Assembly (NCBI GenBank): GCA_039621445.1
Contig: CP154954.1
Span: 44,619,847-44,683,846, forward strand
Reading direction: 5' to 3'
Source: Euglena gracilis
Lineage: Eukaryota
DNA length: 64,000 nucleotides
Below, piece after piece: positions 17,511 through 20,500 of this stretch (within the stretch, counting starts at the first letter, position 1; every line of letters starts with the position of its first letter). Made by a program: the position numbers and the translations under genes. The notes beneath the pieces were generated by a model. That model did no database searches. It saw only the letters and a program-made list of their open reading frames with translations, and was not told the origin of the DNA.

Positions 17511-20500
17511 ATGCCTCCCCGCTCCGCGGCGCTGCCCCTCCCGCTGTTGCTGGTGGCCGCTGCCCTCCTCCCCGGCCCCGGCCCGGCGCTGGCCGCCAAA
17601 CCCCCCGCTGGTCCAGAGGTTTTTTTAAGTTTCGTGGCCCAGGGAGGGGGTGGGTGGGTCCCGGGTGCAACACAGGGAGGGCGTACAGGGTTTGGGTGGG
17701 GCGGTGTCCCCCCCACCCGTCCGGACCACCCCCCCCCCCCACCTGCCAAGGAGGGTCCGGACCGAGTGGAGCGGTCTGGGTGACCGATTTTTGGCTTGGC
17801 GCAAAGGGCCAGGCCGAACAGTTTTGACCCCCCGAAACGACCAAACGTGCCATTTTGGGCCCTTTTTATCAAAAGTGAAAAAATTTTCGGCACAAGCGCC
17901 GGAAGGAAAATTTTGACTTTTTGGGGGGTGGGGTCCCAACCCCCCTAACCCCCTCCCCAAAAGTAAGACCCCCCCTGGACGTTCCGAGCAAAAATCCATG
18001 AAATGGACCCCCCATGAAAGGAATGGCCGGAGGCCTGAAGGAAGGCACGACAAGGGGTGGAAAAATTTTTATGATCATGCATCAGTAGCACAGCTTCACT
18101 GGATAATGGTCCCCGGTCAGGGCCTTCGCCTCTTTCTCTTGTGTCTCACTTTGGCCATACTCAGAGATATCTTTATAGGGCCGCTCCTCCAGCCAAGTGA
18201 TCTCTTTCCCCGTCGCCCTGGGTCACCAGGACTCTGACTCTCACTGAATCCATGAAGCAAGTCTTCAGCAATGGCATTTTGTGCCATGTTTATGTCTATG
18301 AACGGGGAAAAAAAATGACGTGAGAATCAGTGCTTCCCACAATAATTTCCCAAAAACAAAAATTTTCCAGCAAAAAAATGCATAAAATGGACCCCCTCAG
18401 GGTTTTTCACCGGTTCGTGCCACGAACAATCACGAACAATCACGAACCAGCACGAACTTGAGATTTTGGTAAAATCACGAACAATCACGAACAATCACGA
18501 ACAATCACGAACCTGATTTTTTTGGTCACCCTTGCAGAAATGTCTTCTTCTGAGAATGACGGTGTTGTTCAATCAACCAAACAGAAAAGATAATGAAAGA
18601 GAGGTGGAAAAATGACTCCTCAAAAGCGTGCCGCCCAGGTGTCACACCTATCTTGTTTGTATTTCCCCCCTTTTGGCACCTTTTCCAGTTTGGTGGAGTG
18701 ATGGAAGTGAGAGGGTCGGAAATGTGGTGCAGTGTTTGCCATGTTTCAGTGCACTGGGCCGAGAAGACACATGCAAAGCAACATATTTCATTGTCAACTC
18801 ACAAGGGCAACCTCTTTCGCAAACCAAAGATTGTGGAAACACCTGGTCCATTAGCTGAATTGATGGATGCAACCAAAGGGGCCCAGGCACAGGGGGGGGT
18901 CCCTGCCGAGTTCCGAACTCAACCAGATAAGGGGGGGGGGTTTGGGACCCGAACTCGGCTGCCTCCAAACGTGACGTGGTGGTATTTTGTTTGTTTCAAT
19001 ATATATTTTTGTATTTTGCTTTCCCCATTAACCTAAATATTTAGATTAAAAGAGGCACAAGAAGCCAAAGTACAAGAGGAATCACCCATTTCGCCGAGGA
19101 AAAGAGAAAACCGGGCGGTTTTTTGGAAGCACGAACAATCACAAACAATCACGAACAATCACGAACAATCACGAACCGGATTTCAGGCTTCCCAGCACGA
19201 ACCAGTGGTAAACCCTGGACCCCCTCCCATGAATAAGACACCCGACCGCAACAGCAACCGACCCATGAAATGGACCCAGGGTCTTATTTGGGGGGGGGGG
19301 GGTAAATTTTAGGACCCCCCAAAAAACCCAAAAGTGGGTCCCCCTGAGCCCCCCCCCCCCCAGGTGGTGGGTGGGTGGCTGGGTCCTTTTAAAAAAAAAA
19401 GCTCTTCTCCGACCCCTGGGCGACACCCAGTTGGCGGAGCTGCGGCTCGAGGCGGAACGTCAACAATGGACCTTCGAGGTCGGGCCCACCCAGGGAGGGA
19501 ATGTCTCCCATGGCACCACAGTGCACAATCGCAACATGCACACACACACACACACACACACAAACCAAGTTGAAGTACACGCTTCCAAATTTTCTTCCGG
19601 ACATCATTCTTCTGGTGGTTGTGTGGTTGTGGTGGTTGTTGTGTGTTTTTTTATGCAAAAAACAATCTCTTGGGCGGCCAAACTCGTACTTCATCTTTTT
19701 TTTGGTCGGTGTACTCATTTTTGCACACGTCGAAAAGTTTAATTTTGGCGCTGGCGTCAAAAGAACACAAGAACTTTGAGCGAAAGGGAGCACGACGACG
19801 ACAAATCCGAGCGAATTACCATTTTTGGCCCTGGCTCTCCCGGGATTTTTGTGTTTTTTTTTAATGGTCAGCATGGCACAAAAACCCCTGGACCTATCCC
19901 CCCAAAAGTGAAAAAAGCCAACCAAAATACCAAAACCCCAGTGCAGCCACCCCCTTTGGCCCTTTGCTTGCTTTTGAAGCCCTGGGGCACGTTGTGGAGG
20001 TTTTTGAAGTTGGTCGCGAAAGAAGTGGAACCGCATGCACAACAAATACAATGGACTGTATGAGAATTCTGCCGTGCTGCATGTGTGTGCATTAGTACGT
20101 GCGTGCTTGTGTGGTCTGTTATGCGTGCCATGCGGACATCAGTGTGTTTTGTGTCGTCCGTGATGCTTATCCAAGGCAGAGGTCCCCCCCCCCCCAGGTC
20201 TTTGGACACCCGCCATCCCTGCCCACAACGACGCCACGAACCGCTCCCTCTCCCAGCTGTGCGGCTTGAAGGTGCCCCGCAACATTGACGAGCTGGTGGC
20301 TGACAACACCGCCCCACCGCCAGGGGGCCCTGGGGGGGGGGGTGGAGAACAGGGCATAGTGGCGCTCCAAGTGCTTACCCCGAAAAAGCATTTTGCCTAA
20401 ATTGGCAAAACTCGCATATATATATATATATATATATTCATATGTATGTATGTGCGTGCGTATGCATATATATATATATATATATATTATATTATATTAT

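Follow-up and report, generated by a model that had tools for sequence, protein, structure and literature searches.

The window analysed here, a stretch of 64,000 nucleotides of Euglena gracilis DNA, contains two adjacent, tandem papain-family cysteine-protease genes (copy 1 and copy 2), and a Pfam search of its open reading frames identified only two Peptidase_C1 domains and one FG-GAP_3 domain. Neither Rfam matches nor tRNA genes were found in the window. The two protease genes have about nine introns in common and differ only in the 5'-most one, an extra intron 1 that is present in copy 1 alone. The coordinates of the protease features, of the parts of intron 1 and of related elements elsewhere in the window are collected in Table 1.

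Table 1. Features of the two protease genes, of intron 1 and of related MITEs in the window.
Feature	Coordinates	Strand	Basis
Exon 1, protease copy 1	17511..17610	+	ATG at 17511; 100 nt; RNA contigs stop at 17610; alignable with the beginning of exon 1 of copy 2
Intron 1, nonconventional, 1,800 nt	17611..19410	+	GT..CC, or 17612-19411 as TC..CG; skipped in RNA contigs
5' spacer GTC, 3 nt, ahead of CAG	17611..17613	+	sequence; fits the published 3-nt donor spacer
5' inverted-repeat-like arm CAGAGGTTTTTTTAAGTTTCG	17614..17634	+	one other window match, the mini-MITE 5' terminus; alignment of the 5' profile begins with profile position 1 at 17614
5' subterminal (GGGT)n-CCC motif	17647..17662	+	common to C1 and C2; alignment A1, motif census
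Family-B-like nested fragment	17661..17940	+	blastn; start aligns to the B2 5' end (by eye)
Nested 820-bp CAG..CTG element	18398..19217	+	TSD GACCCCCT at 18390-18397 and 19218-19225, 8/8
3' subterminal motif CCCCCCAGGTGGTGGGTGGGTGGCTG	19356..19381	+	one other window match, 47210-47235, 3' arm of C1
3' inverted-repeat-like arm CTTTTAAAAAAAAAAGCTCTT, ends CTT (CTG expected)	19386..19406	+	pairs with 17615-17626; reverse complement matches the 5' profile
3' spacer CTCC, 4 nt (published code: 5)	19407..19410	+	sequence and RNA junction
Exon 2, copy 1, 77 nt, first base G	19411..19487	+	RNA piece 19411-19486; 2 letters fit either side
Intron 2, nonconventional	19488..20226	+	ACC+CAG ... CTG+CCCAC, next exon begins A; register picked within a 2-nt slide
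MITE C2, 242 bp	32639..32880	+	TSD CAACCCAC/CAACCCGC, 7/8
Exon 1, copy 2, 177 nt, unbroken at the homologous site	35900..36076	+	aligns without a break to exons 1 and 2 of copy 1; predicted open frame
MITE C1, 305 bp	46980..47284	+	TSD GCTGCAGG, 8/8
Mini-MITE, 63 bp	57626..57688	+	TSD AGCCCAGC/CGCCCAGC, 7/8; nearest relative of the intron 5' end

Intron 1 is a real intron that is spliced from copy 1 RNA. In record 17 of the X16 contigs (1,215 nt), the genomic blocks 17496-17610, 19411-19486 and 20226-20318 abut one another (record positions 10-124, 125-200 and 201-293), and in record 11 of X15 (1,123 nt) the blocks 17502-17610 and 20226-20318 are separated by 76 letters, which is the length of 19411-19486. 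Removal of 17611-19410 from the RNA is therefore seen directly in X16 and follows by arithmetic from X15, in agreement with the junction that the first-pass annotation had drawn from sequence and proposed to confirm by cDNA. The RNA status of the contig runs is presumed, with one raw RNA run added, and the junction was taken from the placement of the contig blocks, being absent from the 15 of 27 joints that were listed; no back-splice joint is present among those 15 either. A slide of 1 nt is possible because there is a g on both sides. The splicing of the copy 1 mRNA contigs, which measure 1.1-1.2 kb and come from two runs, keeps the reading frame exactly. Contigs of the DNA run X1 span both borders of intron 1 (17370-17737 and 19352-19529), which places the intron in the DNA as well. 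The joint of the neighbouring intron 2 (19486 to 20226) occurs in X16, in X15 and in three raw X21 reads, and in none of the X1 contigs. A conventional intron from the GT at 17611 to the AG at 19401 would also be in frame, but it was rejected as the RNA junction lies at 19410/19411.

As the first-pass annotation had noted, the 100-nt and 77-nt exons of copy 1 together correspond to the single 177-nt exon of copy 2, and the alignment is colinear with no indel at the junction. Comparison of the two copies by blastn gives 74-90% identity for exons 1-9 and 97-99.5% for the 3' exons. The alignment contains no 8-nt excision footprint at the copy 2 site, and excision of a transposon from copy 2 at the DNA level was ruled out in the absence of such a footprint. 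The closest protein relatives of a protease exon have at most 61% identity in the protein collection searched, and an outgroup search of metagenome contigs with a degenerate pattern of 26 nt based on the conserved exon-2 motif gave no matches.

Intron 1 belongs to the nonconventional (NC) intron type of euglenids, on which Tessier is said to have reported in 1995. Introns of this type are characteristically excised later than the conventional ones and leave as circular RNAs of full length. The splicing code, as set out in the part of PMC12501133 drawn upon here, comprises a 3-nt spacer followed by CAG, a CTG followed by 5 nt, paired ends, and a purine opening the following exon; the same part describes knock-in tests on a different intron, which lost its function on mutation of the CTG and worked less well with a 4-nt spacer. 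The borders of intron 1 as read from the RNA contigs are GT..CC (or TC..CG) and thus neither GT-AG nor GC-AG, its junction can be slid by 1 nt as in other NC introns, a CAG stands at +4 to +6 (17614-17616) behind the 3-nt spacer, and a G at 19411 opens exon 2. The ends pair, as had been claimed, with a duplex of -15.9 kcal/mol compared with -9.1 +/- 2.7 for shuffled sequences, 7 of 300 of which reach that value. The 3' side departs from the code, in that positions -8 to -6 read TCT and the partner of the CAG is a CTT at -7 to -5 followed by 4 nt, off by one as the first-pass annotation had also recorded, whereas the neighbouring intron 2 matches the code exactly. Intron 1 is also long for this type, at 1.8 kb, because of the nested transposons that it contains. 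The first-pass annotation does not mention the NC type. The CAG at +4 and the paired ends are hallmarks of every NC intron and so do not by themselves constitute evidence for a MITE; unlike the NC introns in the portions of the published accounts covered here, intron 1 has arms that can be linked to individual, named transposon copies.

Two matches within the window relate the arms to the local MITE family C, which is characterised by a T-run TIR. The only other match to the 5' terminal 21-mer (at up to 3 mismatches) is the terminus of the mini-MITE at 57626, with 18 of 21 positions identical and in register from the CAG, and the only other match to the 3' subterminal 26-mer, under the same mismatch limit, falls within the C1 3' arm on the plus strand, with 23 of 26 identical; 0.01 and 0.00 matches are expected respectively, although these estimates derive from dinucleotide shuffles and are too low for low-complexity motifs such as T/A runs and (GGGT)n. 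Profiles of the MITE arms built without the intron were used with nhmmer and matched 17614-17661 (E = 0.036), 17733-17615 on the minus strand (E = 0.0028) and, with the 5' profile against the reverse complement of the 3' arm, 19400-19348 on the minus strand (E = 0.0012), with similar scores also arising at low-complexity places; the 3' profile found nothing below E = 0.06 at the intron 3' end on the plus strand. The resemblance of the intron ends to family C that the first-pass annotation proposed is thus above chance, and the identity between the intron arms and family members is 86-88%. Part of the similarity falls in low-complexity T/A runs and (GGGT)n.

The organisation of the arms is also shared. 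In alignments A1 and A2 all members have a single layout, a TIR and then (GGGT)n-CC, on the plus strand in both arms, and a census of (GGGT)n in the window gives 17 sites on the plus strand and four on the minus strand, with pairs at intron 1, C1 and C2; the motif is present in other repeat families too. The intron ends form 11 terminal pairs (4 + 7), interrupted by a single internal mismatch, the 5' end being CAG and the 3' end CTT. An 8-bp TSD is not recognisable, again as previously stated, since CGCTGGTC and CTCCGACC agree at 4 of 8 positions, and in the other register at 2 of 8, compared with 7-8 of 8 in the relatives. On these sequence comparisons, a MITE ancestry for the arms is supported, but unproven.

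The interior of intron 1 contains the two nested insertions that the first-pass annotation had placed there. Segment 17676-17937 matches 24257-24514 and 12624-12796 at 75-79% by blastn, consistent with a family-B-like fragment, and the perfect 8-bp TSD of the 820-bp element proves that it was inserted later. This element has a 23-nt TIR that is 87% complementary, loose ends at 18398 and 19219 mark its high-copy boundaries, and no domain was found in its ORF by Pfam at E values up to 10. The interior is covered by DNA reads to a depth of up to about 4.6e5, compared with about 150 in exons, and the bin containing the 5' arm to a depth of 535, compared with 181 for exon 1. In one X1 DNA contig only 16 other letters separate 17637 from 19344; the genome thus has, at some place, a short form that lacks the 1.7-kb interior.

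MITEs of the hAT superfamily have an 8-bp TSD and short TIRs that begin with CAG or TAG. The family C members C1 and C2, both of which had been called as MITEs, and the mini-MITE are true insertions, as their TSDs show, and they share with hAT MITEs, as does the nested 820-bp element, CAG..CTG termini and TSDs matching at 8/8, 7/8, 7/8 and 8/8 positions respectively. Elements of the CAG...CTG form with 8-bp TSDs are common in the window, with seven clean cases; the control for this combination of triplets and TSDs used a low-complexity filter. Intron 1 resembles these elements in its arms, which are like those of C1 and the mini-MITE, and is unlike hAT MITEs in lacking a recognisable TSD. None of the 203 ORFs of at least 130 aa in the window has a transposase domain by Pfam (no hAT transposase and no BED), so that hAT is an assignment by structure only; the hAT label of the first-pass annotation is based only on the 8-bp TSDs and CAG..CTG termini of the relatives. 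No Pfam family was found in the flanks of the mini-MITE, and its right flank had no match in the protein collection, in which relatives even of the protease exon are as distant as given above. Open frames across junctions from which the MITEs have been removed fail to discriminate, because long open frames occur everywhere in this GC-rich DNA.

Intron 1, an NC intron, is probably derived from a family C MITE, which would have inserted into exon 1 of copy 1 once the gene had been duplicated. The arms, which measure about 50 nt (5') and about 80 nt (3'), would be the remnant of a small non-autonomous CAG...CTG transposon of the T-run TIR family that includes C1, C2 and the mini-MITE, and the roughly 1.7 kb between them would be nested transposon material added later. 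The inverted arms pair, which would bring the two cut sites together, and such an element may have been spliceable from the start. In the present RNA the cuts fall 3 nt upstream of the CAG and 4 nt downstream of the CTT, which would be a worn CTG. The first-pass proposal of a recent MITE-derived intron stands in that the intron is real, confined to one paralog, MITE-like in its arms and host to nested inserts, but the worn TIRs, the lost TSD and the several elements inserted within it do not point to a recent age. If the element ends at 19406, intron 1 amounts to the element plus 7 nt and not plus 8, such that insertion with an 8-bp TSD and splicing of the element plus 8 nt requires one more change. 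The CTT with its 4-nt spacer, the missing TSD and the low-complexity share of the similarity all count against a MITE origin.

A different history is that the intron, whether MITE-derived or not, is ancestral and disappeared from copy 2 without leaving a trace, for instance through recombination with reverse-transcribed mRNA or through conversion from a cDNA-like copy. The spliced copy 1 mRNA is colinear with copy 2 without an indel, as a precise loss would leave it, the worn TIRs, missing TSD and several nested insertions imply that intron 1 is old, and the 97-99.5% identity of the 3' exons shows that sequence exchange between the copies occurs. RT-mediated loss usually removes neighbouring, 3'-biased introns, however, whereas here the 5'-most intron alone is missing and the shared ones stay, and the 86-88% identity of the arms to family members compares with only 74-90% between the paralogs in exons 1-9. 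We regard such a loss as rather unlikely, and gain after duplication is favoured because copy 2 has no 8-nt footprint and retains all of the other shared introns, and because NC intron gain is reported to be frequent in the sections of Milanowski 2014 (PMC3935182) relied on here.

An ordinary NC intron of other origin, with a MITE likeness that reflects convergence on the splicing code together with low-complexity chance, is unlikely. The code is general and demands CAG/CTG and paired ends (PMC12501133, in the part drawn upon above), the window has 21 (GGGT)n sites and the motif also turns up in other repeat families, the nhmmer E values are only 0.001-0.04 with low-complexity places scoring alike, and intron 1 has no TSD; yet convergence does not readily accommodate two independent, position-specific family matches outside the CAG/CTG, an order and strand of motifs in both arms that is the same as in C1 and C2, and a short DNA form that links the two arms. 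The extreme depth of the high-copy interior could be taken to mean that the intron does not work at all, copy 1 being a transposon-disrupted pseudogene or the insert an assembly artefact, but this is very improbable given the mRNA contigs of two runs that are spliced exactly in frame and the unique DNA contigs that cross both borders.

The spacing of the NC splicing code may also bear on a MITE origin. The published cut sites lie 3 nt upstream of the CAG and 5 nt downstream of the CTG; these offsets add up to 8, which equals the TSD length, and cutting at these positions removes the element plus exactly one TSD copy, so that a MITE landing in an exon would at once be a harmless intron and the mRNA restored to the letter. 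We tentatively suggest that euglenid NC splicing could in effect be an RNA-level precise excision of hAT-like MITEs. A MITE origin of euglenid NC introns has been proposed in print since 2014, and in the parts of the 2024 and 2025 papers covered here it is still a suggestion, with the transposon family unnamed. The 8-bp/hAT arithmetic was not found in the covered portion of the literature on NC introns.

There are parallels in other systems. The introner elements of Micromonas, Aureococcus and others are MITE-like DNA transposons turned spliceosomal introns (as described in the part of PMC11282704 used here). Like them, intron 1 would be a non-autonomous TIR element in an exon that is removed from RNA with part of the duplicated target. 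Introners, however, carry or co-opt GT/GC-AG sites for the spliceosome, whereas the borders of intron 1 in the RNA are non-canonical and its removal follows the euglenid rule of CAG/CTG plus pairing. Maize Ds, also a hAT-family non-autonomous element that can lie in an exon and be removed at the RNA level, was reportedly found by Giroux in 1994 to be spliced as a de novo intron, with cryptic spliceosomal sites and imprecise removal, both unlike intron 1.

The locus thus provides a specific example in favour of the old suspicion that NC introns derive from transposons. The arms of an RNA-verified NC intron resemble free-standing, TSD-flanked elements of the same 64-kb window, and the intron-free neighbouring paralog shows the empty site. 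The equality of the 3 + 5 nt offsets with the 8-bp duplication is a simple, checkable rule that can be examined genome-wide on existing assemblies; if true, it would explain both the hundreds of thousands of NC introns of Euglena and the fixed distances from the CAG/CTG helix in the splicing code. Under this rule, intron 1 would count as an old and worn case, and the TSD-flanked mini-MITE, which sits within an open frame, may be a fresh one.

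The window has the base composition of GC-rich eukaryotic DNA and contains two papain-family cysteine-protease genes, both on the + strand. One ORF per gene matches Peptidase_C1 (Pfam, E = 2.5e-15 and 1e-15), and the closest database protein is a C1A protease with 61% identity. Using blastn, eleven exon segments of copy 1 (17511-29582) were paired with ten of copy 2 (35900-45230), with 74-90% identity across exons 1-9. The last two exon pairs reach 99.5% (26816-27009 and 43501-43694) and 97% (29380-29582 and 45028-45230), and from this high identity the 3' end of the paralogs looks like the product of gene conversion. 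In the exon pairing the copies differ in structure only at the 5' end, where 17551-17604 and 19413-19499 of copy 1 align with one unbroken stretch of copy 2 (35937-36088), in agreement with the first-pass annotation that intron 1 is present only in copy 1. The interval from AAACCCC to CAG(T/C)TGGCGGAG is 33 nt both in spliced copy 1 and in copy 2, and removal of intron 1 is therefore exact relative to the intron-free copy. Continuity of copy 2 exon 1 is based on alignment and an open frame, the RNA alignment having covered copy 1 only. Long (GT)n/(CA)n microsatellites occur in copy 1 introns and at the window end (20504-20741, 21683-21778, 28351-28768 and 62642-63900), and the only non-protease Pfam match among 203 ORFs is an FG-GAP_3 repeat in the ORF at 61661-62128 (+; E = 2.3e-06).

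Two presumed-RNA runs (X16 and X15, as Logan contigs), one raw RNA-seq run (X21) and one DNA run (X1) were aligned on 17000-20410. Record 17 of X16 (1,215 nt, depth 21.5) matches as three pieces, 17496-17610, 19411-19486 and 20226-20318, which adjoin one another in the record (positions 10-124, 125-200 and 201-293). Record 11 of X15 (1,123 nt, depth 71.4) matches 17502-17610 and 20226-20318, with 76 record letters between them, the length of 19411-19486. Thus 17610 is joined to 19411 directly in X16 and, by letter count, in X15, a joint taken from the table of aligned pieces and not among the 15 joints listed of 27. Both borders of the intron are crossed by X1 DNA contigs (17370-17737 and 19352-19529), and since the RNA contigs skip what the DNA contigs enter, the 1,800 nt at 17611-19410 are present in DNA and removed from mRNA, confirming the intron where it had been placed. 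As 17611 and 19411 are both g, a cut at 17612..19411 is equally possible. A conventional GT(17611)...AG(19401) pair is in frame, yet unused by RNA. The joint 19486->20226 is supported by X16, X15 and three raw X21 reads, and by none from the DNA run. The X16 mRNA contig begins matching at 17496, directly after an AG, with 9 unmatched letters preceding. The ATG follows 14 nt downstream of this site (17495-17497), which is a probable acceptor for the spliced leader.

Intron 1 is a euglenid nonconventional (NC) intron, a class already known. Its borders are GT..CC (or TC..CG), not GT-AG. The NC code, as set out in excerpts of PMC12501133, consists of a 3-nt spacer then CAG at the donor, CTG then a 5-nt spacer at the acceptor, pairing beside these motifs and a purine opening the next exon; an older consensus has CA at +4, +5 and TG at -7, -6 (PMC3935182, in excerpt). 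The donor (GTC then CAG at 17614-17616) and the first base of exon 2 (G) fit the code, and pairing of the ends has an energy of -15.9 kcal/mol, compared with -9.1 +/- 2.7 in shuffles, 7/300 of which reach that value. At the acceptor, the A and G of CAG are matched by T19405 and C19404, so that CTT (19404-19406) stands at the CTG position, 4 nt after which the intron ends; it departs from the code by one changed letter and a spacer one letter short, in keeping with the pairing register reported earlier as off by about 1 nt. Intron 2 (19488-20226) is also nonconventional, with ACC+CAG ... CTG+CCCAC and A opening the next exon, an exact fit within a 2-nt slide. CAG and paired ends are features of the class and are therefore not in themselves evidence of a transposon.

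The window was scanned for CAG...CTG pairs separated by 40-3,000 bp in which 11 or more of 14 positions of the terminal inverted repeats (TIRs) are complementary. Among 222 pairs, the flanking 8-mers are identical (8/8) in five and match at 7/8 in three, with a rough chance expectation of about 0.006 for 8/8. By these matches the comparison elements are true insertions flanked by target-site duplications (TSDs). The eighth of these pairs (11207-13362, TSD at least 7/8) lies in a G run and was left uncounted; the table lists the other seven together with a mini-MITE.

CAG...CTG elements with TSDs of at least 7/8
Element	Coordinates	TSD match
C1 (family C)	46980-47284	8/8
C2 (family C)	32639-32880	7/8
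Element nested in intron 1	18398-19217	8/8
CAG...CTG element inside copy 1 intron	24242-24627	8/8
CAG...CTG element	31254-31349	8/8
CAG...CTG element	34491-34617	8/8
CAG...CTG element	11078-12901	7/8
Mini-MITE (family C), 63 bp, in open frame	57626-57688	7/8

As a control, each of the 64 possible terminal triplets was scanned for in this way with low-complexity sequence filtered; of the 19,530 pairs obtained, 74 have TSDs matching at 7/8 or better. For the eight highest-scoring triplets, the non-CAG matches, not each inspected, are nearly all G/C runs or one palindromic satellite (13.5-16.4 kb); among these triplets the CAG class (8/220 pairs) alone has dispersed elements with varied, complex TSDs. 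The satellite (13500-16400), with units like TTGCGCAA / TGCGCGCA, is the source of many false TIR/TSD pairs in the control.

The arms of intron 1 were compared with family C, a local family of small non-autonomous transposons (MITEs) with T-run TIRs. Apart from itself, the 5' terminal 21-mer matches a single site in the window (at most 3 mismatches, either strand), the 5' terminus of the mini-MITE (18/21, in register from CAG). The 3' subterminal 26-mer likewise matches only 47210-47235 in the C1 3' arm, on the same strand (23/26); shuffles gave 0.01 and 0.00 matches respectively, although dinucleotide shuffles model motifs such as (GGGT)n poorly. Profiles were built with intron 1 left out, for 5' ends from C1, C2, the mini-MITE and 46121, and for 3' ends from C1, C2, the end at 2187 and the mini-MITE. 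Searched against the whole window, they align with 17614-17661, starting at profile position 1 (E = 0.036), and in reverse orientation with the intron 3' end (19400-19348, E = 0.0012) and its 5' end (17733-17615, E = 0.0028); the 3' profile gave no match at E < 0.06 to the intron 3' end on the + strand, a point against the link. Intron 1 and the family members have the same layout: in each arm a T-run TIR is followed by (GGGT)n-CC, always on the + strand. The window has 17 + strand and 4 - strand occurrences of GGGTGGGTGG, pairs of which mark intron 1, C1 and C2. Also against the link, other G/C-rich places match the profiles with similar scores, and (GGGT)n is present in other repeat families too. 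On sequence grounds, a family C-type element is the likely ancestor of the arms.

The proposal that NC introns have a MITE-like origin dates from 2014, when no euglenid transposon was known (PMC3935182). A 2024 review repeats the idea, equating CAG/CTG with a TIR and describing the repeats at the junctions as 'TSD-like' (PMC11282704), and it returns as a suggestion in 2025 (PMC12501133; PMC12621601); the E. gracilis assembly paper treats repeats as bulk classes only (PMC11252322). In the portions of these sources available to us and in literature searches, no named transposon family, hAT assignment or 8-bp rule was found for NC introns. What the window adds is that CAG...CTG elements make 8-bp duplications and that the NC spacers sum to the same length, 3 + 5 = 8. 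A -3/+5 cut would therefore take out the element together with one copy of the duplication and return the mRNA to its original sequence. This 3+5 rule is a prediction drawn from the TSD scan, the triplet control and the published code. For the mini-MITE, the rule would predict cuts at 57623 and 57693 and an exon starting with a purine at 57694. Intron 1 is a useful test case for the origin of NC introns.

Intron 1 itself has no recognisable TSD, as the first-pass annotation had said: the flanks CGCTGGTC and CTCCGACC agree at 4/8, or at 2/8 with 19405 taken as the last base of the element. When the 3' end is placed at 19406, splicing removes the element and 7 nt more. Insertion with an 8-bp duplication, followed by removal of the element and 8 nt, would leave one base too many, yet the paralogs are colinear. 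One has to assume either loss of a terminal base or a shift of the cut.

Was intron 1 gained in copy 1 or lost from copy 2? In favour of loss are the exact removal, the clearly old age of the intron, and the exchange between copies visible in the 3' exons. Gain is favoured because the arms are transposon-like, the copies differ in the 5'-most alone of about ten introns, an excision footprint is missing from copy 2, and the arms match their family at 86-88% where paralog exons 1-9 match at 74-90%; NC intron gains are also described as frequent in the available part of PMC3935182. A search of metagenome contigs with the conserved exon motif gave 0 matches and hence no outgroup. Overall, gain in copy 1 is the probable history and loss from copy 2 a rather unlikely one. 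The earlier interpretation is thus partly supported: the intron is MITE-like and was probably gained, with no TSD and with polarity unproven, and its age speaks against the gain being recent.

The interior of intron 1 is layered. The 820-bp element nested within it, with TIRs of 23 nt that are 87% complementary and a TSD (GACCCCCT) that matches perfectly, is indeed a nested insertion; a Pfam search of its 158-aa ORF gave nothing at E up to 10, so its description as a hAT relic depends on structure alone. Tandem 10-bp CACGAACAAT repeats occupy both its subterminal regions (18421-18520 and 19121-19183). The family B-like piece reported earlier is borne out, as 17676-17937 matches elements of that local family at 24257-24514 and 12624-12796 with 75-79% identity, and a further layer of nesting is suggested by another pair of inverted segments (17946-17971 / 19279-19304). 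One X1 DNA contig (depth 88) passes from 17637 to 19344 with 16 intervening letters of other sequence, small indels at 17637, 17641 and 17646 appear in single contigs of about 110-120 depth, and summed depth is 535 in bin 17570-17683 against 181 in the exon 1 bin. Together these indicate that a short, arms-only DNA form exists without the 1.7-kb interior; this form may be an allele of the intron 1 locus or another copy.
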